Source: Escherichia phage fEgEco12. From it: DNA of 64,000 nt. The translations under genes were made by a program, and so were the position numbers. This document shows positions 4,259 through 62,552 of the stretch, in pieces. Within the stretch, counting starts at the first letter, position 1; every line of letters starts with the position of its first letter. The stretch lies in the sequence record PP777464.1. One strand, given 5' to 3'. The notes below the pieces were generated by a model that saw only the letters and a program-made list of their open reading frames with translations, made no database searches and was not told the origin of the DNA.

Positions 4259-4454
4259 ACATATGTTGATTTATCAATGTGGTAACATTCGTGTTATGCA
4301 GCATCCCTACTTACAAATCTTTGATGTGCAGCAGTATATGGAAGGTGATGATCCAAGAACCTATGGTCGTAAGTATGATTACTTCACTGTAAAGCAGTGT
4401 CATAACATCAAAGAAGTACGACAATTAGTTCAAGAACTTCAAAATAAAGGTTGA
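4233..4454 (+). CDS. hypothetical protein
   Basis: ORF; start uncertain (alternative ATGs at 4248 and 4263). Confidence 0.4.
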   Translation: MACVNMRTKHMLIYQCGNIRVMQHPYLQIFDVQQYMEGDDPRTYGRKYDYFTVKQCHNIKEVRQLVQELQNKG

Positions 4455-4481
4455 CTTCGGTCAACCTTTTTTGTTATAATT
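4449..4481 (+). terminator. composite terminator-promoter: hairpin AGGTTGACTTCGGTCAACCT + T-run, TTGACT inside stem, TATAAT downstream
   Basis: 8-bp stem hairpin, T6 run, -10 TATAAT 4475-4480. Confidence 0.7.
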
Positions 4482-4509
4482 ATTTCATCAACTACTGGGG
4501 ATTTTAATT

Positions 4510-4950
4510 ATGTACGTATATCGTTTTGAACTTAAATTCAGTTATATTGAACCTAACTTAGATCCAGCAAAAACAGTAGGGCCGTTCGCACGGTACTCTT
4601 CACGATACAGTACTAAAAATGGATTTGACCGTTTGTGCATGACCACGCCTTCGCAATTCCAACCAGAACCAACTGAAGATGGAATCTATTCAATCAAACG
4701 TGGCTGGGCATTTGGCTGTCAGAGTTTGAATGATTTGTTTAAGTTCTTTACTATGGACTTGGGTAAATTACATCGTGCAGGGTTTGCTGTATCAGTATAT
4801 GAAGTTCCTGATAATCATGTTGACATTGGTCGTAGTCAAGTTCAGTACTATTGTGGTAGTGCCAATCTGGTTCGTATCATGTCAGTGAGAGAAGCAAAGG
4901 ATGAGTACCGCCAAAGTAAAAGAGTAATACATGAGGCTGTATATGGATAA
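4510..4950 (+). CDS. hypothetical protein (146 aa)
   Basis: ATG after conserved leader CATCAACTACTGGGG. Confidence 0.55.
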   Translation: MYVYRFELKFSYIEPNLDPAKTVGPFARYSSRYSTKNGFDRLCMTTPSQFQPEPTEDGIYSIKRGWAFGCQSLNDLFKFFTMDLGKLHRAGFAVSVYEVPDNHVDIGRSQVQYYCGSANLVRIMSVREAKDEYRQSKRVIHEAVYG

Positions 4951-5287
4951 GACACAAATAGAATTAAAAAAATTTGTATCGTTTTATCTACCCAATGACC
5001 CACGTTGTACACAATATGATGTTGCATATTACAATGCATTGACTACACAGTTAATGAAGAAATTCAAACAGTGTTTGACTGTATTCAATGATGATGGTAG
5101 ACGTAGATATAGAATCATTCCAATGAATGATGAAAACGATAACTACTTTGACTTTGATGTTGTTTTTCGAGCATACAATGATGATAGAATAAAATTAAAT
5201 TATGAGCAAATAATGCTTGACCTGAGTGTTATCTGTGTTATAATTACTCACATAGCCGAACTTGATGGTTTAAAAGAATGGTATTAA
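4931..5287 (+). CDS. hypothetical protein
   Basis: ORF; alternative ATG at 4943. Confidence 0.45.
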   Translation: MRLYMDKTQIELKKFVSFYLPNDPRCTQYDVAYYNALTTQLMKKFKQCLTVFNDDGRRRYRIIPMNDENDNYFDFDVVFRAYNDDRIKLNYEQIMLDLSVICVIITHIAELDGLKEWY

Positions 5288-5301
5288 CTTAGAGGATAAT
5301 C

Positions 5302-5568
5302 ATGAAGCTTAAATTACAATACAATGGTTTTACTTTGCGTAACGACACTGAGTTTGTCAATCGTTCACCAGGTGCTGAGTTGTTTTTGCGAGAGATGAAC
5401 ATTCCTTTCGTCATCACTACTGTTGGTGACCGTGAAGTGCTACAATACGCAGAGCATCCAGTTATTGATGTTCCGTGGTATTCTGAGCATATGTATATGG
5501 ATATGGCCCGTCGCTACGACTGTAAGTTCGTAGTTGAAGGTGATAAAATTACAGTCCAATTCAAATAA
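5302..5568 (+). CDS. hypothetical protein (88 aa)
   Basis: ATG with GAGGA RBS. Confidence 0.5.
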   Translation: MKLKLQYNGFTLRNDTEFVNRSPGAELFLREMNIPFVITTVGDREVLQYAEHPVIDVPWYSEHMYMDMARRYDCKFVVEGDKITVQFK

Positions 5569-5579
5569 GGTAACTTAAA

Positions 5580-5873
5580 ATGATCAGTACTTCAGTAAAT
5601 GCAAGCATCGTGGCAGACGTAGAAATGGTTAAAGAATGTACAGACGAAACCCTTCGCAACATGTACATCAATGATTTGATTTCAGAGTACGGAAGTCGTG
5701 GTGTTCATGAGTTTGTTCGCCTAAGCGGTGAATTGATGAAGAATCGCATTCGTATGAAGCTTAATGTGCATCCAAAAGCATGGGCGTTTACAATGAAGTA
5801 CGCTGAAGATATTGTTGAGTTGCGTCGCAATGATGTGTATAATCGTTTACACAATGGTACATTAAAGGACTAA
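5580..5873 (+). CDS. hypothetical protein (97 aa)
   Basis: ATG ORF. Confidence 0.5.
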   Translation: MISTSVNASIVADVEMVKECTDETLRNMYINDLISEYGSRGVHEFVRLSGELMKNRIRMKLNVHPKAWAFTMKYAEDIVELRRNDVYNRLHNGTLKD

Positions 5874-5879
5874 ATTATA

Positions 5880-5911
5880 GGAATCCGTAAAAGGATTCCT
5901 GTTCTTGTTTG
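5880..5911 (+). terminator. intrinsic terminator-like hairpin GGAATCC(GTAAAA)GGATTCC + T-rich tail
   Basis: 7-bp stem, followed by TGTTCTTGTTT. Confidence 0.55.
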
Positions 5912-5923
5912 TAAGGTAATAAA

Positions 5924-6148
5924 ATGAAATATCTAGTACTAGTACTGCTATTCTTGAGTACTGTTGTATGTGCTAAACCAAAGTATCATGTAGTGTGTAT
6001 CAACGAGATGGAAGGATATACTGAAACATATAAGAACCATATTGTTGAAGTTGCAGCCCAAGGTTCCTATGGGACCATCATCTTCCTTAAGAACAATGTG
6101 ATTGTTCAGTACAAAAAAGATTCAAATTGTAAAGTGACTAAAAATTGA
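5924..6148 (+). CDS. putative secreted small protein
   Basis: signal-like N-term MKYLVLVLLFLSTVVCA. Confidence 0.5.
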   Translation: MKYLVLVLLFLSTVVCAKPKYHVVCINEMEGYTETYKNHIVEVAAQGSYGTIIFLKNNVIVQYKKDSNCKVTKN

Positions 6149-6163
6149 TCTAGATCATTTTTT
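6146..6163 (+). terminator. palindrome TGATCTAGATCA + T6
   Basis: 12-bp perfect palindrome followed by TTTTTT. Confidence 0.35.
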
Positions 6164-6218
6164 CAGATATTCTCTGTAAATAATAGCAGTACAGAACATT
6201 ATTTTACGGAGGTGTAAT

Positions 6219-6455
6219 ATGGAAACTATAATCATCATATGTGCGTTGTTTGCATTTTTGGTAATGTGGTCACCAACATTCATTGCATATAAAATGAAAA
6301 ATAAAAATGCAGAAGCAATTATGTACGTAAACTTATGTTGCATACTAACTTATGGAATACTTTTATTCTTTACTGAATTTACATTAATCCCAGTAGTAGT
6401 TTGTTCATCAATGTTTATTTGGTTGTTTCTGCTTTATGAATCTATTAAAAAATAA
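6219..6455 (+). CDS. small membrane protein
   Basis: ATG with GGAGG RBS; hydrophobic. Confidence 0.5.
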   Translation: METIIIICALFAFLVMWSPTFIAYKMKNKNAEAIMYVNLCCILTYGILLFFTEFTLIPVVVCSSMFIWLFLLYESIKK

Positions 6456-6463
6456 AAGATATA

Positions 6464-8040: not shown

Positions 8041-8074
8041 GGGGTTGACTTCAGTCAGCCCTTTGTCGTATAAT
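8041..8074 (+). terminator. composite terminator-promoter (GGGGTTGACTTCAGTCAGCCC hairpin, TATAAT 8069-8074)
   Basis: member of repeated hairpin family. Confidence 0.65.
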
Positions 8075-8821: not shown

Positions 8822-8852
8822 GGGTTGACTTCGGTCAACCTTTTCTTTATAC
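8822..8852 (+). terminator. composite terminator-promoter (GGGTTGACTTCGGTCAACC hairpin)
   Basis: hairpin + T-run, TATACT downstream. Confidence 0.65.
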
Positions 8853-8881
8853 TATAAATATAGTCATAGAGAATAAACAAT

Positions 8882-10402: not shown

Positions 10403-10428
10403 AGGTTGACTTCGGTCAACCTTTTTTT
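10403..10428 (+). terminator. terminator hairpin AGGTTGACTTCGGTCAACCT + T7
   Basis: same hairpin family. Confidence 0.7.
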
Positions 10429-11084: not shown

Positions 11085-11117
11085 GGGTTGACTTCGGTCG
11101 GCCCTTTTTGCTATAAT
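11085..11117 (+). terminator. composite terminator-promoter (GGGTTGACTTCGGTCGGCCC, TATAAT 11112-11117)
   Basis: hairpin family; conserved leader CATTTCATCAACTACTGGAGG follows. Confidence 0.7.
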
Positions 11118-15299: not shown

Positions 15300-15713
15300 A
15301 TGAAGAAGTGTATCACGTGTAATATTGAAAAAGACATTAGTGAATTTGGTATAAGAAAAGATACTGGGAAACATAGAAATACATGCAAAGGTTGTAGTAA
15401 TATTACCAGTAAGAAAACCAGAAATAAAAAAACTGATGTCAAAAAACTTGAAGAAATCAAAAGAAAAAATAAAGATTTCATGACCAGAGTTAAATCATTT
15501 TATGGTTGTAGTATTTGCATGATGAAGTATCCAGAATGTTTAGACTTTCACCATCTTGATCCTAATACCAAAGAACATACACCAAGTTCTATGTTCAGTA
15601 AAAGTCGAGAATCTATCAAAGATGAAATTCGAAAGTGTATGATTCTTTGTTCTAATCACCATCGCATGGTACATTCTGGTAGACTATGTTTGATTGAAAG
15701 AAAAAAGGGTTGA
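15300..15713 (+). CDS. HNH-family endonuclease (putative homing endonuclease)
   Basis: paired CxxC motifs and DFHHLDP...N...CSNHHRMVH His-Asn-His signature. Confidence 0.65.
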   Translation: MKKCITCNIEKDISEFGIRKDTGKHRNTCKGCSNITSKKTRNKKTDVKKLEEIKRKNKDFMTRVKSFYGCSICMMKYPECLDFHHLDPNTKEHTPSSMFSKSRESIKDEIRKCMILCSNHHRMVHSGRLCLIERKKG

Positions 15714-15739
15714 CTTCGGTCAGCCCTTTTTGCTATAAT
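15707..15739 (+). terminator. composite terminator-promoter (GGGTTGACTTCGGTCAGCCC, TATAAT 15734-15739)
   Basis: hairpin overlaps the HNH stop codon. Confidence 0.7.
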
Positions 15740-16289: not shown

Positions 16290-16322
16290 GGGTTGACTTC
16301 GGTCAGCCCTTTTTGCTATAAT
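16290..16322 (+). terminator. composite terminator-promoter (GGGTTGACTTCGGTCAGCCC, TATAAT 16317-16322)
   Basis: hairpin family. Confidence 0.7.
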
Positions 16323-52501: not shown

Positions 52502-52533
52502 TGGTTGACTCCGGTCAGCCATTTTGCTATTAT
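52502..52533 (+). terminator. composite terminator-promoter (TGGTTGACTCCGGTCAGCCA; -10 TATTAT)
   Basis: right-arm variant of the left-arm hairpin family. Confidence 0.6.
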
Positions 52534-53404: not shown

Positions 53405-53439
53405 AACTTTTATCAACTACACTACTAAGGAATTAAAAA

Positions 53440-53619: not shown

Positions 53620-53630
53620 AATATATTACC

Positions 53631-53665
53631 AGTACTATTGACATAGATTGATAGTACTGTATAAT
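53631..53665 (+). promoter_or_regulatory. palindrome-embedded promoter variant
   Basis: TTGACA 53638-53643, TATAAT 53660-53665. Confidence 0.6.
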
Positions 53666-53709
53666 AAGTTTTATAAACAGTAGTTAACTTAACCTAAGAG
53701 AGAAATAAA

Positions 53710-53853
53710 ATGATCGCACTGGATTCATTCATCGACGCAGTACTGGCAAAAACTGGCGAGGATCTGACCGCAGAACAATACGCGATGATCGAGCAATGTC
53801 AGCAAAACGGTAAATCGGTGAAAGATACTGTTAAGATTATCCGCAAGATGTAA
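53710..53853 (+). CDS. hypothetical small protein (47 aa)
   Basis: ATG after AGAGAGAAA RBS; paralog of 49834-49986. Confidence 0.45.
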   Translation: MIALDSFIDAVLAKTGEDLTAEQYAMIEQCQQNGKSVKDTVKIIRKM

Positions 53854-53859
53854 TATTAT

Positions 53860-53890
53860 AGCCCACTGGTTAACGCTGGTGGGCTTTAAT
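53860..53890 (+). terminator. hairpin GCCCAC..GTGGGC containing a Chi octamer
   Basis: inverted repeat after stop; weak T-run; GCTGGTGG 53875-53882. Confidence 0.45.
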
Positions 53891-53958
53891 CATTTACCCT
53901 ATACAATGCCAGTACTAAACCGTTTATCTCGTTAGAATGCGTTACAGGACGTTTGACA

Positions 53959-54156
53959 ATGATTAGCATGAAATCAGTACAAAAACAAATAGAAACATTA
54001 TCAAAAATTAAACGTAAACAGTACTCGTTAGAATATACAATCAATGGTAACTATCATCTAATGAAAGAGAATAATTTCATTGTCATTGATGAATCATTGC
54101 AAGTTATTAGTATAGTACTGAAAGCATTAATCAATGACAGAAAAAAATTAAAATAA
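53959..54156 (+). CDS. hypothetical protein (65 aa), uncertain
   Basis: AT-rich ORF without a clear RBS; track start is TTG. Confidence 0.3.
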   Translation: MISMKSVQKQIETLSKIKRKQYSLEYTINGNYHLMKENNFIVIDESLQVISIVLKALINDRKKLK

Positions 54157-54160
54157 TCTA

Positions 54161-54189
54161 TTGACAATATCCTCCAGTACTGGCATAAT
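54161..54189 (+). promoter_or_regulatory. orphan promoter TTGACA-17-CATAAT
   Basis: TTGACA 54161-54166, CATAAT 54184-54189; leader carries AACCCATAGGGTGCAC. Confidence 0.5.
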
Positions 54190-54250
54190 ACTTACATCAA
54201 GACGAGAACGTCACTAACCCATAGGGTGCACAAATGTAACTATATAATAT
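54190..54250 (+). ncRNA. candidate short transcript with ACCCATAGGGTGC motif
   Basis: no ORF downstream. Confidence 0.3.
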
Positions 54251-54251
54251 C

Positions 54252-54324
54252 GATCAATAAATGATCAAAAAAGTACTGGATCAATTTAGCATAAGGCGTA
54301 TAATTCTGATCAATTCTTGATCAA
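54252..54324 (+). promoter_or_regulatory. cluster of five GATCAA repeats around a promoter (TATAAT 54299-54304)
   Basis: GATCAA at 54252, 54263, 54279, 54308, 54319; two pairs spaced 11 bp. Confidence 0.5.
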
Positions 54325-54485
54325 AGGCAATATACGCAGTTGAATTTATATAGACAGTACAAAGGCGTTACTATTCGTGGTAATGCTGGTGGATATGTAG
54401 TATCATATGGTTTGAATAAGATAAACACTAGTAGTATTATTGTAGCATTACAGTACTATAGTATTTTTATAATGAGGTTAAAATA

Positions 54486-54743
54486 ATGGCAGTAGGATAC
54501 GCGAAAGACGGGGCCGAACAAGACGAGATTCATGCAGTGATTCAGGCCGCCGTTAACCACGCTAGAAAGCAAATTAACGCACAAAGAGAATCACTTGTAC
54601 ATTGCCTCGACTGCGGCGATAAAATCCCTGAGAATCGACGCCAGGCCGTTATAGGGTGCATGTATTGTATTACTTGCCAGGAGGATCATGATAGTACTTT
54701 TAAAAGAGATCCGCGTAATTGTTGGCATAGATCTATGAGATAA
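54486..54743 (+). CDS. TraR/DksA-family C4 zinc-finger protein
   Basis: CLDCGDKIPENRR...CMYCITCQ C-x2-C-x17-C-x2-C motif. Confidence 0.7.
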   Translation: MAVGYAKDGAEQDEIHAVIQAAVNHARKQINAQRESLVHCLDCGDKIPENRRQAVIGCMYCITCQEDHDSTFKRDPRNCWHRSMR

Positions 54744-54748
54744 AAAGT

Positions 54749-54776
54749 ATTGACAGTACTGAAAGATAGTGTATAA
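54749..54776 (+). promoter_or_regulatory. promoter TTGACA-16-TATAAT
   Basis: TTGACA 54749-54754, TATAAT 54771-54776. Confidence 0.6.
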
Positions 54777-54806
54777 TGTTTTATATCTTAACTGAGGATA
54801 GTAATC

Positions 54807-55163
54807 ATGGGAATACAACATATCACGCGTACTACTGACAATGGCGAGATCACTGGCTATCAAGTACAGGGCAAAGTAGCACAATTGCAGTACTGGTTTG
54901 TTAAACGTGGAATCATTGCACCGGATCTTGATTATGACCGTGTAGCGTTTATTGATTCTCTTTATGTTGATCCTGATAGTCGGGGCAATGGTGAAGGTAA
55001 CGAATTAATGAATGCCTTTATTGATGCCGCCGATGATTCAGATTGTATCATCTTAGAATGCGATACGGGAGAAGATAACGCCTTTAATCTTAAAGAATGG
55101 TACGAAGGTTTCGGATTCGAGGTATTGATAGATAGTGAATATCCTATCATGATTTTATCATAG
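54807..55163 (+). CDS. GNAT-like N-acetyltransferase (small)
   Basis: VDPDSRGNGEGNELMNAF resembles GNAT motif A; C-terminal Y..GF. Confidence 0.5.
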   Translation: MGIQHITRTTDNGEITGYQVQGKVAQLQYWFVKRGIIAPDLDYDRVAFIDSLYVDPDSRGNGEGNELMNAFIDAADDSDCIILECDTGEDNAFNLKEWYEGFGFEVLIDSEYPIMILS

Positions 55164-55166
55164 TAC

Positions 55167-55223
55167 TTGCATTTAGTTTTCAGTACTGTTATAGTACTTG
55201 CATCAAGGGGAAACATCTTCCCC
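55167..55223 (+). promoter_or_regulatory. promoter + leader stem-loop module
   Basis: TTGCAT, TATAGT, hairpin GGGGAAACATCTTCCCC. Confidence 0.6.
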
Positions 55224-55241
55224 TACTAAGAGGAAATAAAA

Positions 55242-55430
55242 ATGGAAAACTTATCAAGTATTTTAGTACAAGATGATTTCGGTAATCCTGGAAGTGCTAT
55301 CATTGTTCGGGGCAATAAAGCAACGTTTGTTATTGCTGGTGGACCCGTACAGCGTAGCATTAAAAATAATGCTGTTACCATTAATAATGTACGCTATCGC
55401 TTAGATAAAGAATTAATTCATAAACTGTAA
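55242..55430 (+). CDS. hypothetical protein (62 aa)
   Basis: ATG after AGAGGAAA RBS. Confidence 0.5.
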   Translation: MENLSSILVQDDFGNPGSAIIVRGNKATFVIAGGPVQRSIKNNAVTINNVRYRLDKELIHKL

Positions 55431-55457
55431 TATTAATTTAATAGAGGATAACAATAA

Positions 55458-55781
55458 ATGTACATTCATACTACTGTCACAAAGGAAGTCCGTTGCCAGT
55501 TCGAAAGTATTCCGGGCGTATGTTTCATCACTGGTACGTTTTCCCCTGGTGATCGTGATAATCCAGTACTGTTACAGTTACGCCATCCATTATGGGATAA
55601 AGCATTTGATCTGCCGTTGAATGAATTCGCAACCACTGCTGATAAGTACATTAAAAATATTCGCGAGAATGATTGCCTATTCATTAATGCTTTTAGTGAT
55701 GCCGCGTTAAGTGAGATCCATGCTGTATTGGTTGCAATCATGGAATCAATGGAGAAAACTATATTCAAACAAGGTGAATAA
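55458..55781 (+). CDS. hypothetical protein (107 aa)
   Basis: ATG after GAGGA RBS. Confidence 0.55.
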   Translation: MYIHTTVTKEVRCQFESIPGVCFITGTFSPGDRDNPVLLQLRHPLWDKAFDLPLNEFATTADKYIKNIRENDCLFINAFSDAALSEIHAVLVAIMESMEKTIFKQGE

Positions 55782-55786
55782 AAACT

Positions 55787-55846
55787 ATTGACAATGCAAT
55801 CCAGTACTGTATAATAGTTTACATGAAGGGGAGAAATGATTCTCCC
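55787..55846 (+). promoter_or_regulatory. promoter + leader stem-loop module
   Basis: TTGACA 55787-55792, TATAAT 55808-55813, hairpin GGGGAGAAATGATTCTCCCC. Confidence 0.65.
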
Positions 55847-55864
55847 CACTAAGAGGAAAGAAAA

Positions 55865-56077
55865 ATGCAAGGTCAACTAATCGTTCGTAAATGGTCTGAT
55901 ACTAACGAAAAACCGTGGGATGTACAATACATCGCCCCAAATGGTGAATCCAGATATCAACCAGGTGTAACGCATAGTACTGAGCAATTCGCCGCCGCTC
56001 ATCGCGAACGTCTGTTACAATCAATGCAGCAAGGTTCCGGTGAAAAATTCATTCAGGATCATTGGCTGAAAGATTAA
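55865..56077 (+). CDS. hypothetical protein (70 aa)
   Basis: ATG after AGAGGAAAG RBS. Confidence 0.55.
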   Translation: MQGQLIVRKWSDTNEKPWDVQYIAPNGESRYQPGVTHSTEQFAAAHRERLLQSMQQGSGEKFIQDHWLKD

Positions 56078-56085
56078 AAAAGTAC

Positions 56086-56143
56086 TTGCACAGTACTGAA
56101 TAAAGTGTATAATGTTTTATATCGGAAGGGGAATAGTTCCCCT
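56086..56143 (+). promoter_or_regulatory. promoter + leader stem-loop module
   Basis: TTGCAC 56086-56091, TATAAT 56108-56113, hairpin AGGGGAATAGTTCCCCT. Confidence 0.65.
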
Positions 56144-56164
56144 CCTAACAAAGAGGAAAGTATA

Positions 56165-56338
56165 ATGGTCCAGGTAGAATTAACAGTACTGAAAGATCTG
56201 TTTTATCGGATTGGTACTACTGGCGAATATCCGAAGGGTGATAATGCAAAACTTTACGTATCACTCGACTTATGGCAACGCGAACAATTAGCAACGGCCT
56301 GGCGTAAAGGCAAAGCAGATCGAGAGGTGAAAGCATGA
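56165..56338 (+). CDS. hypothetical small protein (57 aa)
   Basis: ATG after AGAGGAAAG RBS. Confidence 0.5.
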   Translation: MVQVELTVLKDLFYRIGTTGEYPKGDNAKLYVSLDLWQREQLATAWRKGKADREVKA

Positions 56339-56484
56339 AAGAATTCTTATTTGAAGTAGTGTTTCAAGGTGTCGGTAATAACCAACTGATTCGATCAAGT
56401 GGTTATAATGTTAACCAGGCATGGAATAACATTAAACAAATGTACCCGAACGCTATCACATATCGCAACCCGAAAGAAGTTTAA
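56335..56484 (+). CDS. hypothetical small protein (49 aa)
   Basis: ATGA overlap; below track cutoff. Confidence 0.4.
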   Translation: MKEFLFEVVFQGVGNNQLIRSSGYNVNQAWNNIKQMYPNAITYRNPKEV

Positions 56485-56498
56485 AAATATTTGAAAAA

Positions 56499-56532
56499 GG
56501 GATTGACTCCGGTCAGTCCCTTTGCTATTATA
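56499..56532 (+). terminator. composite terminator-promoter (GGGATTGACTCCGGTCAGTCCC; -10 TATTAT)
   Basis: hairpin + TTTGC; TTGACT inside stem. Confidence 0.65.
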
Positions 56533-56622
56533 TACGCATAGAAACAAATTAGCCCACAGGGTGCATAAATGTATCTATTGTTTGCTGGTGGCTAGTACTG
56601 AAAACTATTTTTAAAAAAGTAC
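56533..56622 (+). ncRNA. candidate short transcript with TAGCCCACAGGGTGCATAAATGTATC motif and Chi octamer
   Basis: no ORF; GCTGGTGG 56584-56591. Confidence 0.3.
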
Positions 56623-56650
56623 TTGCATTGTACTTAGAATCAAGTATAAT
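56623..56650 (+). promoter_or_regulatory. promoter TTGCAT-16-TATAAT
   Basis: TTGCAT 56623-56628, TATAAT 56645-56650. Confidence 0.6.
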
Positions 56651-56651
56651 G

Positions 56652-56738
56652 TTTTACATCAGGACGGGGAACGAAATAAGTAACCCCGTTAAGTAGTCCA
56701 GGAGTAAGACATACGAAAAACTCCCCTGATAAAATAGT
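56652..56738 (+). ncRNA. candidate small RNA / structured leader (copy 2 of duplicated element)
   Basis: near-identical to 46398-46486; no ORF. Confidence 0.35.
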
Positions 56739-56766
56739 TTGACAATAGAAAGTAAACGAGTATAAT
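56739..56766 (+). promoter_or_regulatory. promoter TTGACA-16-TATAAT
   Basis: TTGACA 56739-56744, TATAAT 56761-56766. Confidence 0.6.
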
Positions 56767-56799
56767 ACTTACATCAACCACTGATAAGGAAACATTAAA

Positions 56800-57075
56800 A
56801 TGCGGACTTTACTTACAGCTAACGAAATCGAGCAAGTACTGACTACTAATCTGGAACAATGGAAACGTGAAGCAGATATCCAGGCGGTTCAATGCCTTAA
56901 CGATAAGTTAACGCCAGATGACTTAAGCACGATTGTTGATCCACAATTTTATGAAGATATTCACGACACGTCTTTAAGCGTCGAGGATGTACTTGATAAG
57001 CACTACATTGATACTGATTTACATGTTTACGGTCGTAAAAACTTTATCACTATTCACGACATTTACAATACTTAA
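56800..57075 (+). CDS. hypothetical protein (91 aa)
   Basis: ATG after AAGGAAA RBS. Confidence 0.55.
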   Translation: MRTLLTANEIEQVLTTNLEQWKREADIQAVQCLNDKLTPDDLSTIVDPQFYEDIHDTSLSVEDVLDKHYIDTDLHVYGRKNFITIHDIYNT

Positions 57076-57078
57076 GTA

Positions 57079-57140
57079 TTGACAAAGTATCTTAGTACTG
57101 TATAATAGTTTACATCAAGTGAGGGGAAACGGTTCCCCTC
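57079..57140 (+). promoter_or_regulatory. promoter + leader stem-loop module
   Basis: TTGACA 57079-57084, TATAAT 57101-57106, hairpin GAGGGGAAACGGTTCCCCTC. Confidence 0.65.
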
Positions 57141-57163
57141 CTAACAAAGAGAGAGAAATAAAA

Positions 57164-57346
57164 ATGGCTAAGTGCACTATCTGTAATAAAGAAATAGTAT
57201 TAGTTCCAAGTGCCCGTGAACGTGCCGCTCGGTTCGGTGGCAAAGCGTCAGACTATACAAAAATGTTTACTGCCCATACAGCTTGCCAGGTAGCAAAACG
57301 TTCACAAGAAAGCGTAGAATTAATGCGTAAACTTTCCAAAAAATAA
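57164..57346 (+). CDS. small protein with CxxC (60 aa)
   Basis: ATG after AGAGAGAGAAA RBS. Confidence 0.5.
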   Translation: MAKCTICNKEIVLVPSARERAARFGGKASDYTKMFTAHTACQVAKRSQESVELMRKLSKK

Positions 57347-57349
57347 GTA

Positions 57350-57411
57350 TTGACAAAGTATCTTAGTACTGTATAATAGTTTACATCAAGCGAGGGGAAT
57401 AGTTCCCCTCC
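57350..57411 (+). promoter_or_regulatory. promoter + leader stem-loop module (duplicate of 57079-57140)
   Basis: TTGACA 57350-57355, TATAAT 57372-57377, hairpin GAGGGGAATAGTTCCCCTC. Confidence 0.65.
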
Positions 57412-57433
57412 TAACAAAGAGAGAGAAATAAAA

Positions 57434-57757
57434 ATGGCTATGATCCTTGCCCAGAAAGTAGAATTGAAAATTGTAACCTCCTTTGACATTAACGTTAATC
57501 GGTGGACTGATTCACACGGCAATACTTACCACTCTTGCTACGTGTCTGCGTTAATTGGCGACCGCTGGGAAGACCTGGGACACGAAACCTTTACATACGG
57601 TTACGGTACACAAGGCGAATACACGGGCTTGGAGATCATTAAAGAAACCGTTATAGGTTTCAACCCGAAAGAAAAAGTTATTCATCGCATCGAGGAAGAG
57701 ATCAACAAAGAAATAACAGTTCGCTACCACGATGTAAAACGTAAGAAAGACATGTAA
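57434..57757 (+). CDS. hypothetical protein (107 aa), paralog of 50603-50926
   Basis: shared NRWTDSHGNTYHSC block. Confidence 0.55.
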   Translation: MAMILAQKVELKIVTSFDINVNRWTDSHGNTYHSCYVSALIGDRWEDLGHETFTYGYGTQGEYTGLEIIKETVIGFNPKEKVIHRIEEEINKEITVRYHDVKRKKDM

Positions 57758-57788
57758 TAGAATCCATTTAAAGTACTATTTGACATTG

Positions 57789-57817
57789 CCCAGATAGTAC
57801 TTTATAATAGACTCTAA
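57789..57817 (+). promoter_or_regulatory. promoter TTGACA-17-TATAAT
   Basis: TTGACA 57789-57794, TATAAT 57812-57817. Confidence 0.6.
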
Positions 57818-57852
57818 CTTGTAGTACTAACTCAACTAATAGGATGTATACC

Positions 57853-58248
57853 ATGATTACTAAATTCTACGCTACCCGTGAAGCTGCCCGTATTGTTGCA
57901 CGCGAGGAAGGAGCAGCATTTAAAGACATGGGCAAAGATGCAACGAAAGGACAACGCTGGGCCGTACAGTTCAAAGAAATCTCTGATATTGTGAATTCAC
58001 CTGAGCCAGTACTGACAGCAGCAGAACTAAAACGAGCGGATATGCTGGCGGCAATACTTGACGCACAAGATGAGTTTATCGCTGATTCTGATATCAAAGT
58101 ACAGGTAAACCACACCGCATGGACTCACGCGGATCACCTGGCAAACCTTAAGCGTCCAAGTGAACTGATTCGCAACCAGAAAGAGATCCGACATGATCGT
58201 AAGGGTAATCGTGTAACAGTATACAGTAAACGCCGCCAGGTTATCTAA
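57853..58248 (+). CDS. hypothetical protein (131 aa), paralog of 45535-45801
   Basis: shared KFYATREAARI...RKGNRVTVY blocks. Confidence 0.55.
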   Translation: MITKFYATREAARIVAREEGAAFKDMGKDATKGQRWAVQFKEISDIVNSPEPVLTAAELKRADMLAAILDAQDEFIADSDIKVQVNHTAWTHADHLANLKRPSELIRNQKEIRHDRKGNRVTVYSKRRQVI

Positions 58249-58270
58249 TAACTTGCAGTACTAACAACAC

Positions 58271-58295
58271 GGCGGGATCAGTTCCCGCCTTTTTT
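58271..58295 (+). terminator. intrinsic terminator GGCGGGATCAGTTCCCGCC + T6
   Basis: hairpin + TTTTTT. Confidence 0.7.
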
Positions 58296-58309
58296 ATAGG
58301 ACAAACAAA

Positions 58310-58564
58310 ATGATTAAGGTTCAACTATATAAAGATAACATCTTACGGGTACACTATAAAGCACCTCAGAGAATCATCACAAAGGCCGTACAGCTTGCTA
58401 ATGAGTTTATTAATGGTAACCTATTACCTAGGAAGTTAAGCAACGGGAAACTGCGTGTAATCGACGTGGACACTAACAACAGGATAGTAATCGAGAACAC
58501 AGGAAAGATAAACCTTTATGAGCATCAACAATACAATAAGAAAATAAAACTAATATCACGTTGA
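58310..58564 (+). CDS. hypothetical protein (84 aa)
   Basis: ATG ORF. Confidence 0.5.
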   Translation: MIKVQLYKDNILRVHYKAPQRIITKAVQLANEFINGNLLPRKLSNGKLRVIDVDTNNRIVIENTGKINLYEHQQYNKKIKLISR

Positions 58565-58589
58565 CAGTACTCAATTGTTTTAGTACTAT
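58561..58589 (+). promoter_or_regulatory. promoter TTGACA-17-TACTAT
   Basis: TTGACA 58561-58566; duplicated at 58837. Confidence 0.55.
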
Positions 58590-58617
58590 GTACACATACC
58601 AACACGGGAGAAACAAA

Positions 58618-58836
58618 ATGAAATTATCTAAAATCGAAAAGAAAACTATTGATGAAGCAGTTAAGCACGGTTATACCTTTCGTAATGATTCACATTTTAC
58701 CAATTTTCAACAAGGGTATCGTACTATTAAAAAACTAATTGACAAAGGTTTATTAGTTGAAGTCAATAACGGTAACGGTATCGAGTATCAACCAACACAG
58801 GACGCATTTTATTTTAAGAAATATAATATTATCTAA
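58618..58836 (+). CDS. hypothetical protein (72 aa)
   Basis: ATG after GGGAGAAA RBS; track ORF begins at TTG within the promoter. Confidence 0.5.
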   Translation: MKLSKIEKKTIDEAVKHGYTFRNDSHFTNFQQGYRTIKKLIDKGLLVEVNNGNGIEYQPTQDAFYFKKYNII

Positions 58837-58865
58837 TTGACAGTACTCAAATGTTTTAGTACTAT
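58837..58865 (+). promoter_or_regulatory. promoter TTGACA-17-TACTAT (duplicate of 58561)
   Basis: TTGACA 58837-58842. Confidence 0.55.
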
Positions 58866-58893
58866 ATGTACATACCAACACGGGGGAAACAAA

Positions 58894-59136
58894 ATGATTA
58901 CTTTAGAAAAACGTATCAAAGAAACTACATCGCTGGTGGAACTGTTAACAGTACTCAAATGTAAAACAACACCATTCAGCACGCCGGACTTTATTAATAT
59001 GGTTGATGTTAATGGTCGCTATCGTATCACGGTCGAACAAGGAGCGGCGAAAGTATTCAGTACTAAAAACACGAAGGAAGTGATCCACGCCGTTAATGTT
59101 AAAAAAGTAGTTGCCATTGATAGTAAAGTACTGTAA
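58894..59136 (+). CDS. hypothetical protein (80 aa)
   Basis: ATG after GGGGGAAA RBS. Confidence 0.5.
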   Translation: MITLEKRIKETTSLVELLTVLKCKTTPFSTPDFINMVDVNGRYRITVEQGAAKVFSTKNTKEVIHAVNVKKVVAIDSKVL

Positions 59137-59167
59137 TATAGTTTCATTAACTCAAGGAGAACATGCA

Positions 59168-59752
59168 ATGCGTAATTATACTAAATTCATCCGTACACTG
59201 TCAGAAATGGAAACCAACAAAGAGATCCTTTCAGCTTGTCGGTTAGCTGGCCTGGAGATCATCGGTGCTGGTTCTTCCCGTATAGTTTTCGCTTTAAATG
59301 ATCGGTTAGTGATTAAGGTCGCGAATTGTGATGCGGGTGTAGAACAAAATGAAACTGAATGTAAGGTATGGAATTTTTTAGACTATGACCGCCCTCAATT
59401 GAAACAGTACTTTGCAAAGGTGCATATGCATTTATGCGATCCTGATAATATGTTTATCGTTATGGATCGGTTGAGTACTGCAAGCAAAGGCAGTGTGAAG
59501 CACGTAAACGCGTGCAATGAATTAAAGTACAATATTAAACGTAATGCAATCGAACGCCAGCACCGCTTTGCTGATGCACTACAACACGTTGATGATACAT
59601 TATCAACACTAACGATAAGAGATATCAGAAAACAGAATATCGGCCAGGATCGTAATGGACTTATTAAAGTACTTGATTACGGTTTAACCAGCAATATCTG
59701 GAATCAGTACTATAAAAAGCGTGATGTGGCAGCAAGTAAGGTAACACGATAA
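59168..59752 (+). CDS. protein-kinase-like protein (ePK-fold motifs)
   Basis: GAGSSRIV glycine loop, VIKV lysine, IRDIRKQN catalytic-loop-like, DYG (DFG-like). Confidence 0.55.
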   Translation: MRNYTKFIRTLSEMETNKEILSACRLAGLEIIGAGSSRIVFALNDRLVIKVANCDAGVEQNETECKVWNFLDYDRPQLKQYFAKVHMHLCDPDNMFIVMDRLSTASKGSVKHVNACNELKYNIKRNAIERQHRFADALQHVDDTLSTLTIRDIRKQNIGQDRNGLIKVLDYGLTSNIWNQYYKKRDVAASKVTR

Positions 59753-59767
59753 AAAAAGATTAAAAAA

Positions 59768-59800
59768 GGGATTGACTCCGGTCAGTCCCTTTGCTATTAT
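59768..59800 (+). terminator. composite terminator-promoter (GGGATTGACTCCGGTCAGTCCC; -10 TATTAT)
   Basis: same element as 56499 and 62520. Confidence 0.65.
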
Positions 59801-59893
59801 ATATCCATTGAGAGATAACTCACTGACCCATAGGGTGCGGAAGTGTATCTATTATATAAGTATTCAGTACTGAAAACTATTTTTAAAAAAGTA
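59801..59893 (+). ncRNA. candidate short transcript with ACCCATAGGGTGCGGAAGTGTATC motif
   Basis: no ORF before next promoter. Confidence 0.3.
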
Positions 59894-59954
59894 CTTGCAT
59901 TGTACTTAGAATCAAGTATAATGTTTTATATCGAGAGGGGGAATGGTTCTCCCT
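59894..59954 (+). promoter_or_regulatory. promoter + leader stem-loop module
   Basis: TTGCAT 59894-59899, TATAAT 59917-59922, hairpin GGGGGAATGGTTCTCCC. Confidence 0.65.
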
Positions 59955-59973
59955 GGCAATAAGGAATAAAATC

Positions 59974-60195
59974 ATGACTACAATGACTTGCATTTACGCT
60001 TCTAATCTTCTGAATGATGCGGCCTTTAATGTTGATTCAGAATATCAATGTTATCGGGATGAAAATAAAAAAGTTTTTGTAGTTGATAATAATGGTTTCC
60101 ATATTGAATTACAATCCGGCTTCACTGGTGTTGATGGTAAATCAGTATGGGGCGTACAGGATGATAAAGGCACATATCATTTTAAACGTAATTAA
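59974..60195 (+). CDS. hypothetical protein (73 aa)
   Basis: ATG after AAGGAATAAA RBS. Confidence 0.55.
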   Translation: MTTMTCIYASNLLNDAAFNVDSEYQCYRDENKKVFVVDNNGFHIELQSGFTGVDGKSVWGVQDDKGTYHFKRN

Positions 60196-60198
60196 GTA

Positions 60199-60257
60199 TT
60201 GACAAAGTATATCAGTACTGTATAATAGTTTACATCAAGGGGAGAATAGTTCTCCCC
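60199..60257 (+). promoter_or_regulatory. promoter + leader stem-loop module
   Basis: TTGACA 60199-60204, TATAAT 60221-60226, hairpin GGGGAGAATAGTTCTCCCC. Confidence 0.65.
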
Positions 60258-60278
60258 GATACTAAAAGGAATAAAATC

Positions 60279-60683
60279 ATGACTACTACTAATCAAGCTC
60301 GGTCCATCGCCAACGATAAAAATCATGCTGCAATGGTCGCTGGTTACATTGAAGCTATGCAATTCAGTACTGTACACAATGAGAACGGCGATTACCTGGA
60401 AGATTATGAGTTATCTGATGAAGCACGTCAAGCGGCGGTGATTGCATGTTCTCGCTTCATTGAGAAACACGGTAATGATCTGGAAGTAGTTCGCGGTATG
60501 TTTATTGATTACGGTTATGAGCAAGCTGGTCATGATCTGTTCCTTACCCGCGAAGGTCACGGAACTGGTTTTTGGGATCGTGGTTTAGGTCACTATGGCG
60601 ATGTATTCACGAAGTACTGCGAAGAAATCAACGTTTGCGATCCCTATGTAGGCGATGATAATCTAATCTATATGGGCGAATAA
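60279..60683 (+). CDS. hypothetical protein (134 aa)
   Basis: ATG after AAAGGAA RBS. Confidence 0.55.
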   Translation: MTTTNQARSIANDKNHAAMVAGYIEAMQFSTVHNENGDYLEDYELSDEARQAAVIACSRFIEKHGNDLEVVRGMFIDYGYEQAGHDLFLTREGHGTGFWDRGLGHYGDVFTKYCEEINVCDPYVGDDNLIYMGE

Positions 60684-60689
60684 AAGTAT

Positions 60690-60748
60690 TTGACAAAGTA
60701 TATCAGTACTGTATAATAGTTTACATCAAGGGGAGAACTATTCTCCCC
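60690..60748 (+). promoter_or_regulatory. promoter + leader stem-loop module
   Basis: TTGACA 60690-60695, TATAAT 60712-60717, hairpin GGGGAGAACTATTCTCCCC. Confidence 0.65.
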
Positions 60749-60772
60749 ACACCAATAAAAGGAAACAAAATT

Positions 60773-61045
60773 ATGTCCAGCTACTCCGCTACTATGATCA
60801 TTAAAGATATGAACGGTAATCCTACTTCTGCTGGTGGATCATTTGGAAATATTAACTTAGATGGGCGGTTATCCATGCAATCAGCCATCGATACAGCGAA
60901 AGAAGTTTTTAAGAATGAATGTACTGTTAGTAAGCTGGATTATATGGGATTCGCTATCGAGAAAACTACTCGTTTTGTGAACTACAAAAATCCACTGATG
61001 ATTGATACTAACCTGAAAGCTAACGAAGTGGGGTACTTATTATGA
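60773..61045 (+). CDS. hypothetical protein (90 aa)
   Basis: ATG after AAAGGAAA RBS. Confidence 0.55.
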   Translation: MSSYSATMIIKDMNGNPTSAGGSFGNINLDGRLSMQSAIDTAKEVFKNECTVSKLDYMGFAIEKTTRFVNYKNPLMIDTNLKANEVGYLL

Positions 61046-61233
61046 CAGTAGAAGAAGTTAAAAAAGTACTGGCAGTACTACGATATCATAATCATTGCAA
61101 GGTGAAGAATGATCCTGATTATCTTGATTCATCCCTGGAGGAAGACACCTTGAACGCTATAAGCCATATGCAGACATTAGCAAAGCGTATGACTGAAAAG
61201 AACATGCCGGACTATATCGGAAATAAAATTTAA
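61042..61233 (+). CDS. hypothetical protein (63 aa)
   Basis: ATGA overlap. Confidence 0.5.
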   Translation: MTVEEVKKVLAVLRYHNHCKVKNDPDYLDSSLEEDTLNAISHMQTLAKRMTEKNMPDYIGNKI

Positions 61234-61239
61234 AAAGTA

Positions 61240-61302
61240 CTTGCATTGTAGTTAGATTAACGTATAATGTTTTATATCGAGAGGGGGAAATGGTTTCCCC
61301 TC
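61240..61302 (+). promoter_or_regulatory. promoter + leader stem-loop module
   Basis: TTGCAT 61240-61245, TATAAT 61263-61268, hairpin GAGGGGGAAATGGTTTCCCCTC. Confidence 0.65.
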
Positions 61303-61320
61303 AAGTCCAGGAGATACACC

Positions 61321-61584
61321 ATGAACACTATCGAAATCACTATCAATGCACACGTATACGACAACGTAGTACTGCAAACTACTATGACCGCCAATGATAC
61401 CAGTACTTTGCGGAATACTGTTATTAGTGCCGTATGTGCCGCTATCGGTGATGTCGCCCTGGAAAATGCAAAACACGTAAACGATGGTTTCACTATGTGC
61501 AAACGTGATAACGCAAAACATATCATCGTGGAAGGTTACGGCGGTGTAGAATTTAATGTTTATATGAAAAAAGTACTTGCATAA
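61321..61584 (+). CDS. hypothetical protein (87 aa)
   Basis: ATG after CAGGAGA RBS. Confidence 0.55.
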   Translation: MNTIEITINAHVYDNVVLQTTMTANDTSTLRNTVISAVCAAIGDVALENAKHVNDGFTMCKRDNAKHIIVEGYGGVEFNVYMKKVLA

Positions 61585-61632
61585 TAACTAAAACAAAGTA
61601 TAATGTTTTGCATAGGGGGAGATATCCTCCCC
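61577..61632 (+). promoter_or_regulatory. promoter + leader stem-loop module
   Basis: TTGCAT 61577-61582, TATAAT 61599-61604, hairpin GGGGGAGATATCCTCCCCC. Confidence 0.65.
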
Positions 61633-61651
61633 CACTAAAAGGAGTAATAAA

Positions 61652-61876
61652 ATGGCTAACTTTGATGAACTGATGCGGGAAGTAGCTAACCTGGCAGAAG
61701 AGAAGAAATCATTCGATTCTATCTATAACACCGCTCACCGTGATTCAGTACTGGCATGTAACCAGGATCAAAAAGATGAACTAATCGCCACCTATCATGA
61801 AGCATGGAAGTACTACCGACAATGGGAGAAAGAAGAAAGTGAGTCTACCATTGACGGCCTCAATAATCTAATCTAA
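61652..61876 (+). CDS. hypothetical protein (74 aa)
   Basis: ATG after AAGGAG RBS. Confidence 0.55.
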   Translation: MANFDELMREVANLAEEKKSFDSIYNTAHRDSVLACNQDQKDELIATYHEAWKYYRQWEKEESESTIDGLNNLI

Positions 61877-61888
61877 AAGTTTTATTTC

Positions 61889-61924
61889 AGTACTATTGAC
61901 ATAGCTTGATAGTACTGATGTAAT
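61889..61924 (+). promoter_or_regulatory. palindrome-embedded promoter (AGTACTATTGACATAGCTTGATAGTACT)
   Basis: TTGACA 61896-61901; weak -10. Confidence 0.5.
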
Positions 61925-61952
61925 AACTTTACTAACTACAAGGGGAAACATA

Positions 61953-62210
61953 ATGGATCAGTTCACACAATATCGGGTAAATCCACAAGCTATGGCCTAC
62001 GTAGAAGACCATAAAACGTTACCAGTACTGCAACCAGTTAAAGGCCATATCTATCGTGCAATGTCGTGGTGTACGGCCCAGGATGGCTATAAAACCGTAG
62101 CCGTGGGTATGTATTGCGGTGATGGTGAATGGTTTGATCCAAATAATCCGGTAGCCATTGACAGTACTGAAAAAATGAAATGGGCCGACTACATCGAAGA
62201 TATTTCATAA
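61953..62210 (+). CDS. hypothetical protein (85 aa)
   Basis: ATG after AAGGGGAAA RBS. Confidence 0.55.
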   Translation: MDQFTQYRVNPQAMAYVEDHKTLPVLQPVKGHIYRAMSWCTAQDGYKTVAVGMYCGDGEWFDPNNPVAIDSTEKMKWADYIEDIS

Positions 62211-62217
62211 AAACTAT

Positions 62218-62279
62218 TTGACAGTACTAACCAATAATGTATAATGTTTTACATAGAGCGGGGGAATAGTTCTCCCGCC
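62218..62279 (+). promoter_or_regulatory. promoter + leader stem-loop module
   Basis: TTGACA 62218-62223, TATAAT 62240-62245, hairpin GCGGGGGAATAGTTCTCCCGC. Confidence 0.65.
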
Positions 62280-62300
62280 AATAGTTTGGAGTAAAACATT

Positions 62301-62501
62301 ATGTCTATCGCTATCGCCCTGGTTGAAGTACTGAAAGAAGCTAAAGCCAACCAGATCGACGTAAAGATCCAGGAACTACAAAACGGCTTAATCGGCTGTA
62401 CTTGTACCGCTGGTGGAGCGGCAGACTATCGAGAACACGAATCACTCGAATCACTGGTTCGGTATCTTACCATGATCGTTGATGATTGGAGAATCATCTA
62501 A
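62301..62501 (+). CDS. hypothetical protein (66 aa)
   Basis: ATG after TGGAG RBS. Confidence 0.55.
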   Translation: MSIAIALVEVLKEAKANQIDVKIQELQNGLIGCTCTAGGAADYREHESLESLVRYLTMIVDDWRII

Positions 62502-62519
62502 CAAAAAAGAATAAAAAAA

Positions 62520-62552
62520 GGGATTGACTCCGGTCAGTCCCTTTGCTATTAT
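62520..62552 (+). terminator. composite terminator-promoter (GGGATTGACTCCGGTCAGTCCC; -10 TATTAT)
   Basis: third identical right-arm copy. Confidence 0.65.

Follow-up and report, generated by a model that had tools for sequence, protein, structure and literature searches.

Putative terminator–promoter cassettes, resembling promoter-early stem-loops, in an Asteriusvirus jumbo coliphage

Results

The window analysed here is a 64,000-nt stretch of Escherichia phage fEgEco12 (PP777464.1), and all element coordinates are window positions. It carries 11 copies of a GC-clamped hairpin with most of a −35 hexamer built into its stem, which we read as candidate terminator–promoter cassettes. The window is 99% identical to the Asteriusvirus jumbo coliphages WPEC3, vB_Ec-M-J and BF17 and 83–86% identical to 121Q, PBECO4 and G17, identities that place its source as an Asteriusvirus (121Q/RaK2-like) jumbo coliphage. 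By GC skew, + strand genes occupy 1–21 kb and 42–64 kb and − strand genes the region in between. Every copy of the element lies on the + strand within the two outer arms, and no composite element was found in the − strand gene block of the window; the elements therefore follow gene direction. The right arm falls within, or next to, the direct terminal repeat annotated in vB_Ec-M-J and is highly mosaic (coverage by relatives 37–99%). Scans of the window for tRNAs and Rfam families returned nothing, the sole sub-threshold match being an S15 leader at E = 0.33, a chance hit.

Left-arm genes include those for a denV-like glycosylase and a P-loop ATPase, with a gp0.7-like kinase in relatives, and the flanking open reading frames (ORFs) are mostly of 50–200 aa and mostly without a Pfam match. 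These surroundings (denV-like and gp0.7-like kinase genes, small ORFans, terminal-repeat region) would fit an early region. Transcription in PA5oct, a related phage, relies on host RNA polymerase and uses TTGAC/TATAATA promoters (PMC7318152). All elements are intergenic. Measured from the end of the upstream ORF, the hairpin starts at −7 to +21 nt; in two copies (4448 and 15707) the upstream TGA stop is the TGA of TTGAC. This arrangement of stop and hairpin agrees with the annotated ends of coding sequences in G17 and WPEC5. Downstream, an ATG preceded by GGAGG or GAGG lies 56–59 nt after TTGAC at 6/7 left-arm sites, and at the 8042 site the ORF starts 77 nt after TTGAC. The right-arm ATG lies 200–300 nt downstream of the element, past a second promoter.

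Pattern matching locates the left-arm form of the hairpin, GGGTTGACTTCGGTCARCC, with at most one mismatch at 4448, 8042, 8822, 10403, 11085, 15707 and 16290, and the right-arm form, GGGATTGACTCCGGTCAGTCCC, exactly at 56499, 59768 and 62520; dinucleotide shuffles of the window give 0 matches to either pattern. The remaining site, 52502 (TGGTTGACTCCGGTCAGCCA), is an intermediate form with a TCCG loop, without the extra A-T pair and with a compensated T-A pair at the stem base. The recurrence described by the original prediction is recovered at all 11 sites. Nine of its coordinates stand and two shift by one (4448 for 4449, 8042 for 8041), and the diverged variant it assigned to four right-arm sites is borne out at three, 52502 being the intermediate.

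From 5′ to 3′ each element consists of an A-tract, a G/C clamp, TTGAC, a T(T/C)CG loop, GTC(A/G)(A/G), the second half of the clamp and a T-run; in the window copies the A-tract is a run of 3–7 A that abuts the clamp. The inner part of the stem's 5′ arm is TTGAC. The whole hexamer TTGACT had been placed within the stem; its sixth base is in fact the first base of the loop. Folded as RNA, the stem is 8–9 bp long and is capped by a C(UNCG)G tetraloop, TTCG and TCCG both being UNCG tetraloops with a C-G closing pair, at −14 to −19.5 kcal/mol and a z score of about −5. Stem and loop have the properties of an intrinsic terminator in 11/11 copies, and the orthologous hairpins of phage G17 are annotated in GenBank as ARNold terminators. 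The T-run is scored at 4–6 T in six copies and 3 T, followed by GCUAUUAU or GUCG, in five; the run claimed earlier is thus present, although it is only 3 T long at 8042, 8822 and three right-arm sites. A generic terminator scan overlooked several elements in which the T-run had been taken up into A-T pairs.

Sequence variation within the stem follows RNA pairing. The 3′ arm varies only by A to G exchange, facing the two U's, so that it pairs as RNA (U·G) and not as DNA, and changes in the clamp are compensated, as by TGG..CCA at 52502 and by the inserted A-T pair of the right-arm type. Since the variation is either G·U wobble or compensatory, a hairpin at the RNA level is indicated.

The promoter half is equally regular. 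TTGACT-N18-TATAAT is present at 4451, 8045, 11088, 15710 and 16293 in the left arm and TTGACT-N17-TATTAT at all four right-arm sites, so that −35 and −10 together match the sigma-70 consensus at 11/12 positions in 9/11 window copies. An extended −10 (TG before the box) occurs in 4/5 left-arm copies with the 18-bp spacer. The spacer is made up of the three remaining loop bases, the 3′ arm, the T-run and GC, as 3+8+5+2 = 18 or 3+9+3+2 = 17; because these parts fix it at 17–18 bp, a longer stem costs T's. Box and spacing are conserved at orthologous sites in 121Q, G17, SHEFM2K and WPEC5. A TATAAT or TATTAT box had been claimed for each copy and holds for these nine; 8822 has TATACT and 10403 no acceptable −10 box, and we take these two of the 11 not to be sigma-70 promoters. 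The dual terminator and promoter reading itself stands at the level of sequence, where all that it leads one to expect is found: intergenic position, a strong UNCG hairpin with T-run, the 11/12 match, a Shine-Dalgarno sequence and ATG next in line in the left arm and, across viral contigs, an extended stem accompanied by a correctly spaced −10 box.

Five left-arm copies are composite (all features in this and the next paragraph are on the + strand). The copy at 4448..4480, of left-arm type, reads AGGTTGAC-TTCG-GTCAACCT, T-run and TG-T-TATAAT with an 18-bp spacer, folds at −14 kcal/mol (z −5.1) and is followed by an ATG at 4510. At 8042..8074, GGGTTGAC-TTCA-GTCAGCCC, TTT and TATAAT with an 18-bp spacer precede a 37-aa ORF that begins at 8122. 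The copy at 11085..11117 reads GGGTTGAC-TTCG-GTCGGCCC, with two U·G wobbles, then TTTTT and TGC-TATAAT; it folds at −18 kcal/mol and leads through ATCAACTACTGGAGG to an ATG at 11144. The element at 15707..15739 (−19 kcal/mol) stands before the gene for a denV-like pyrimidine-dimer glycosylase (15768–16283), and that at 16290..16322 before a 256-aa ORF for a P-loop ATPase, at a junction of cassette gain or loss. Two further copies depart from this plan. At 8822..8860 the left-arm hairpin is followed by TATACT at a 17-bp spacer, overlapping a T4-late-like TATAAATA(TAG), and precedes a 503-aa ORF annotated in relatives as a virion structural protein; this copy is probably a terminator with a late promoter. 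At 10403..10428 the hairpin has a 7-T run and GTAAATA in place of an acceptable sigma-70 −10 box, an absence conserved in 121Q, G17 and SHEFM2K, and we read this copy as terminator-only (or late-promoter). The conserved left-arm leader, CATTTCATCAACTACTGGRGG, is complete only after 4448 and 11085 and missing at 8822 and 10403, the copies at 8042, 15707 and 16290 having only its (T)TTCATC(A/G)A start in common.

The right-arm copies are each the first promoter (P1) of a ~200-nt repeat unit. The intermediate copy at 52502..52533 reads TGGTTGAC-TCCG-GTCAGCCA, TTTT and GC-TATTAT with a 17-bp spacer, its unit ending at an ATG at 52706. The copy at 56499..56531 reads GGGATTGAC-TCCG-GTCAGTCCC with a 9-bp stem, TTT and GC-TATTAT, again with a 17-bp spacer, and folds at −19.5 kcal/mol (z −5.5); the cores at 59768..59800 and 62520..62552 are identical to it, in units that run to ATGs at 59974 and 62747. 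The order within the unit is hairpin and P1, a TAGCCCACAGGGTGC..GTGTATC block, AGTACTG, an A/T-rich tract, the second promoter, a stem-loop in the 5′ untranslated region, a Shine-Dalgarno sequence and ATG. In the example at 56532..56799 the second promoter is TTGCAT...TATAAT and a third lies at 56739. The proposal that the element starts the next gene accordingly fits the left arm and not the right, where a conserved leader of ~100 nt runs into the second promoter. There are 8–24 copies of the unit per Asteriusvirus genome, and it recurs at 70–75% identity in terminal repeats of RaK2, K64-1, GAP32, CBB (where the clamp is GTAC..GTAC), Serratia phage BF and Erwinia Eneladusvirus phages. The ~90-nt leader between the right-arm promoters folds no better than shuffles (z +0.7 to −1.0), and RNAalifold on 24 diverged leader copies returns only an invariant 4-bp hairpin with no compensatory change; we therefore claim no structured RNA for it. 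A small ORF in the leader is ruled out because a 5-nt indel separates the copies.

A megablast of the right arm (50000–64000) matched 124 records, among them Campylobacter, Phapecoctavirus, Justusliebigvirus, Acinetobacter and Erwinia phages, so that some short segment must be common well outside Asteriusvirus, perhaps a mobile gene or a promoter repeat. In LTH01 and UPEC06 (genomes of ~141–143 kb) the matches cover the second-promoter part of the right-arm repeat.

The element extends beyond these relatives. A 61-nt consensus has matches in 168 phage records, from RaK2-like jumbo phages, T4-type Vibrio phages of the KVP40 group, Aeromonas phages (65, CC2), Certrevirus and Brochothrix phage A9. 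Four of these matches were read directly, and all are intergenic, with co-directional flanking genes and a −10 box 17–18 bp after TTGACT. The KVP40 copy, GGGTTGAC-TGCG-GTCAGCCC-TTTCGCG-TATTAT, has nearly the same sequence as the window element.

We scanned viral contigs for TTGACTNCGGTCA-N4-5-TTT, which gave 109 distinct instances. In 67 of them the stem extends by only 0–2 pairs, and these are chance matches, mostly in coding DNA; in the other 42 it extends by 3–9 pairs, 28 of them by at least 6, where random pairing predicts fewer than one. With ~60% of the raw matches due to chance, the raw count is no evidence on its own, and instances were therefore split by stem extension. Under a stricter rule, by which the outermost T of TTGAC is also paired, 39 instances form the stem. 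A −10 box (TAnnnT, at least 4/6 matches, 16–18 bp spacing) is correctly spaced in 30/39 of these and in 3/70 of the others (odds ratio 74, Fisher p = 1.3e-15). The upstream A fraction is 0.59 in true viral instances and 0.25 in chance instances. In 38 distinct viral instances, pairing in the 11-pair stem reaches 96%, compared with 84% after shuffling; to the detriment of our reading, this percentage is inflated, the set having been selected for at least 3 extra stem (clamp) pairs. Double-sided stem changes number 49 against 12 in shuffles, the observed values being reached by 0/500 shuffles, and pairing collapses when the partner columns of this set are slid. Viral clamps include GGG/CCC, GCC/GGC, GTAC/GTAC, AGAG/CTCT and CCGC/GCGG.

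A predicted start-site sequence, CATCGAAAC(G/A)A or CATCAAC, recurs 3′ of the −10 box in RaK2-like, KVP40-like and Certrevirus phages (window 15740–15760 and, in our numbering, loci L019, L058, L075, L101, L107, L112 and L034). This suggests either that the initially transcribed sequence has a common optimum or that whole cassettes have spread horizontally.

Alignment of the left arm with G17, WPEC5, SHEFM2K and 121Q yields 16 breakpoints, 4 of which fall within elements that fill 2.7% of the sequence (binomial p = 7e-4). These are 8085 and 8816, at the flanking elements 8042 and 8822, together with 15693 and 16275–16303. Against all four relatives, the crossover at the 16290 junction lies inside the 5′ arm and loop of the hairpin. 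After denV, 121Q and G17 carry a half-element, GGGTTGACTTCGGT/TACACAAAGG, with the 5′ arm and loop and without 3′ arm or −10 box (121Q, L008, 20610–20626; G17, L001, ~17643–17659), followed by 2.85 kb (genes 218–222) and then a full element. The single element of the window at 16290 has the left flank of the 121Q half-site and the right part of the 121Q full site, and WPEC5 and SHEFM2K have different cassettes at the equivalent place. The half-element has the form of a scar left by cassette insertion or by recombination inside the hairpin.

Other repeated motifs and cassettes

The palindrome AGTACT occurs 290 times in the 64 kb, against ~22 expected from base composition, a 13-fold over-representation; the 23 other palindromic hexamers of AGTACT composition have 6–45 occurrences each. 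Coding DNA has 3.6 copies per kb, distributed over all three frames, and non-coding DNA has 10.3 per kb; the extended consensus reads (C)AGTACT(G). The enrichment is common to 121Q, G17, CBB, RaK2 and GAP32 and is not seen in KVP40 or Certrevirus loci (loci listed with this observation: L001, L006–L008, L129, L009, L058, L037, L019 and L045). Our literature searches found no mention of it in RaK2-like phages. AGTACT could be bound or modified by a protein that acts throughout the genome, or could mark the DNA as that of the phage.

In a second promoter class, TTGACA-N9-(C)AGTACTG-TATAAT, the spacer is 16 bp and AGTACT abuts the −10 box. Members on the + strand lie at 2672, 13538, 43373, 53062, 53638, 54750, 55788, 57079, 57350, 60199, 60690 and other positions. 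Two pairs of near-identical ~100-nt repeats of this class (57079/57350 and 60199/60690) each flank one small ORF, the first missing from 121Q and the second from CRJP21, a pattern that would be the signature of repeat-mediated cassette gain or loss.

An invariant motif, (CACTA)RCCCAYNGGGTGC, is found ~20–30 nt past the −10 box in strong early promoters of the two classes. Its cores lie at 46203, 52559, 54217, 56552, 59826 and 62573 on the + strand and at 47804, 46273 and 44118 on the − strand. No copy lies in the left arm; the motif is conserved in CRJP21, 121Q, CBB and RaK2 and has no Rfam match. Since the evidence for structure stops at a 4-bp hairpin and includes no compensatory changes, the motif is probably recognised by its sequence. 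It might act as a nut/put-like antitermination signal, as an operator that follows the promoter or as the 5′ domain of a small RNA. One unit resembling a small RNA gene lies at 47716–47870 on the − strand, antisense to the surrounding + strand genes, and comprises a TTGACA..CAGTACTGGCATAAT promoter, ~105 nt containing RCCCAYNGGGTGC, a CGGGGAG-TTATTAT-CTCCCCG hairpin and a T-run. At 46140–46330, two face-to-face promoters, one on each strand, flank an inverted repeat of the RCCCAYNGGGTGC motif, and at this 46.2-kb site a long hairpin is predicted for the transcript from either promoter (−38.5 and −26.5 kcal/mol, z −4.6 and −3.9).

The − strand block contains, at 21525–38017, a tandem array of ~14 paralogous genes for RCC1-repeat proteins of 370–400 aa. 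Most array genes are preceded by a third kind of cassette, a hairpin GCCAGTACT-loop-(A)GTACTGGC followed by TTTTCTTTTT, GTATTAAATATAGTATAATGAATAAAGGAGG and ATG, with hairpins at 36841, 35661, 33212, 30825, 29597, 28383, 27120, 26310, 25121, 23912 and 21542. The AAATATAG box of this cassette, which recurs 3′ of the hairpin at 8822, is similar to the T4 late promoter TATAAATA. Where + and − strand genes converge, at 19634–19660, lies a 12-bp perfect hairpin, AATCCAGTACTATAATAGTACTGGATT, with two AGTACT copies; being T-rich on both sides, it is predicted to be a bidirectional terminator.

Discussion

We read the elements as cassettes of the promoter-early stem-loop (PeSL) type, in which the hairpin of an intrinsic terminator would incorporate the −35 hexamer of the early promoter that follows, one of host sigma-70 type, and we put the probability of this reading at roughly 78%. 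In RNA from the upstream gene, the A-tract, GC-clamped stem, C(UNCG)G tetraloop and U-run would terminate transcription, and the hairpin may also cap the 3′ end of the mRNA. In DNA the same bases would supply an A-rich upstream tract, TTGACT, a spacer of 17–18 bp and (TGn)TATAAT or TATTAT, with RNA polymerase starting ~7 nt past the −10 box. In the left arm a leader of ~20 nt with GGAGG and ATG would then make each small early gene an insulated monocistronic unit, and in the right arm, the terminal-repeat region, the element would be the first of two tandem promoters. The ~75-nt cassettes could in addition act as homology patches for the gain, loss and swap of gene cassettes among related phages.

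Several points weigh against this reading. The right-arm copies and 8042, with 3 T after the stem, may attenuate rather than terminate, and the 18-bp spacer is not optimal. The hairpin occurs without a sigma-70 −10 box at 10403 and 8822 and in WPEC5 (L006:971; 8 T, no −10), so it is also dispersed as a simple terminator, with TTGAC going unused in some copies. Comparison of the right arm with CRJP21 and 121Q shows no indel junctions at hairpin elements; the junctions of the two indels lie in the other ~100-nt promoter repeats, 57079/57350 and 60199/60690. The phage has a gene for a sigma-70-family factor of its own ~4 kb upstream of the window, which bears on the holoenzyme used. Lastly, termination, initiation, early timing and the recombination mechanism are all, in this phage, processes that we infer from its DNA.

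A more far-reaching possibility, which we think unlikely, is a terminate-and-reinitiate hand-over, in which polymerase left on the next −10/+1 region after release would be recycled between early genes, the same cassette serving as a homology patch that would make early genes interchangeable. Retention of polymerase on DNA after termination, and its reinitiation, have been shown in vitro (PMC6978380, PMC6978322, PMC11364550). An identical hairpin of 20–26 nt is found in at least 5 phage groups, including a Gram-positive Herelleviridae phage; if the hand-over took place, this recurrence would be convergence on one sequence satisfying the −35, UNCG loop, GC clamp and U-run.

That the elements are ordinary intrinsic terminators, with an incidental resemblance to promoters and downstream genes expressed by read-through or from other promoters, seems distinctly improbable. 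The identical hairpin does stand without a −10 box both at 10403 and behind the sigma-factor gene of WPEC5; terminator is the sole label that these hairpins bear in the G17 record; and a generic sigma-70 pattern scan of the window gave 80 promoter-like sites against 93 in shuffles, no excess, although such a scan is uninformative in AT-rich DNA. Incidental resemblance nevertheless leaves unexplained why a correctly spaced box accompanies the stem-forming viral instances and hardly any of the chance ones, why 9/11 window copies reach the 11/12 consensus, several with TGn and at a fixed distance to Shine-Dalgarno and ATG, and why box and spacing are kept at the orthologous sites of four relatives. 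PeSL promoters of like design are, moreover, active in reporter assays (PMC2839356).

We are just as doubtful that the promoter half is read mainly by a holoenzyme with the phage sigma-70-family factor, which would make the elements middle-phase rather than immediate-early. In 121Q, WPEC5 and SHEFM2K the left arm is closely preceded by the sigma-factor gene, and the two promoter classes, hairpin-TTGACT (17–18 bp) and TTGACA-N9-CAGTACTG-TATAAT (16 bp), could divide between two sigmas. Set against this, the element is a near-perfect sigma-70/sigma-A consensus, the right-arm copies lie in a terminal-repeat region typical of first-expressed genes, and the design is found outside the RaK2-like clade in KVP40, Aeromonas phage 65, Certrevirus CR3 and Brochothrix A9, phages whose sigma content was not checked.

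A DNA operator, at which a dimeric phage or host repressor over the −35 would shut off early promoters with no use of an RNA hairpin, is highly implausible. In its favour, operators classically take the form of an inverted repeat centred on the −35, the core varies remarkably little from copy to copy in this genome, and a phage with a sigma factor of its own must switch from early to middle expression. Against it, DNA symmetry is broken in most copies (TTGAC against GTCAG/GTCGG, a T·G mismatch on DNA and a U·G pair on RNA), viral instances have 28 UG against 10 UA, the clamp varies freely provided it pairs, and UNCG loops, one-sided T-run, post-stop position and a strand matching gene direction fit an RNA terminator.

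If the PeSL-type reading holds, it would extend the PeSL concept from T4-type phages to RaK2/121Q-like jumbo phages and account for part of the mosaic gene content of their early regions. Annotators would gain a simple rule for the boundaries of early transcription units. As a compact, portable part that unites stop, terminator, promoter and 5′ untranslated region, the element may also be useful in synthetic biology, and its recurrence in unrelated phage families would exemplify a sequence fixed by several overlapping constraints.

Among known systems, intrinsic terminators capped by UUCG, such as the early terminator Te of phage T7, combine a GC-rich stem and C(UUCG)G tetraloop with a short U-tract. 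These canonical terminators are not known to be promoters as well, whereas the stem and U-tract of the window elements must fit a promoter spacer of 17–18 bp. The N4-type hairpin promoter is a DNA hairpin of 5–7 bp with a 3-nt loop, formed in single-stranded DNA and read by the virion RNA polymerase; it is ruled out here by the 4-nt UNCG loops, the T·G pairs possible only in RNA and the full sigma-70 −10 box.

Annotations of RaK2-like phages list RpoD-like promoters and ARNold terminators apart (PMC5259590, PMC7318152; G17 record), and the literature that could be searched held no description of composite elements in these phages. Between conserved bacterial operons, overlaps described in 2019 resemble the window elements in that a terminator physically overlaps the promoter of the next unit, and the effect in both systems would be to couple or insulate the expression of adjacent units (PMC6735719). 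The bacterial overlaps are single ancient loci proposed to resist rearrangement (PMC6735719), whereas the phage elements are a multi-copy family that apparently promotes it.

The closest counterpart is the PeSL of phages RB49 and phi1, a sigma-70 promoter with a stem-loop terminator described in 2010 (Arbiol et al., PMC2839356), for which both promoter and terminator activity were demonstrated with lacZ reporters (PMC2839356). PeSLs fall into five subclasses, one with the stem overlapping the −35, and their copies recombine into mini-circles, one crossover having been mapped to the loop (PMC2839356). Later work added PST/T4 and nt-1/KVP40 to the phages with PeSLs (Comeau et al. 2014, PMC4122927), the stem consensus in nt-1/KVP40 being A3-4 G3-loop-C3 T3-4 (PMC4122927); the KVP40 copy fits both that description and the window element. 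PeSLs and window elements have in common an A/T-rich tract, a sigma-70-like promoter, a G/C-clamped terminator stem-loop, a Shine-Dalgarno sequence and ATG, sites among small ORFans in hyperplastic early regions, and indel or replacement junctions with crossovers mapped within the stem-loop. The host group differs, T4-type myoviruses (Straboviridae) for PeSLs and Asteriusvirus for the window, a difference that is taxonomic and not functional. Right-arm window copies, unlike PeSLs, lie within a ~200-nt unit with a conserved leader and second promoter, and the position of the stem relative to the promoter, which distinguishes five PeSL subclasses, is fixed in the window elements. They are elements of a known, PeSL-type kind, involving no new mechanism, in a new phage clade and with one fixed geometry.

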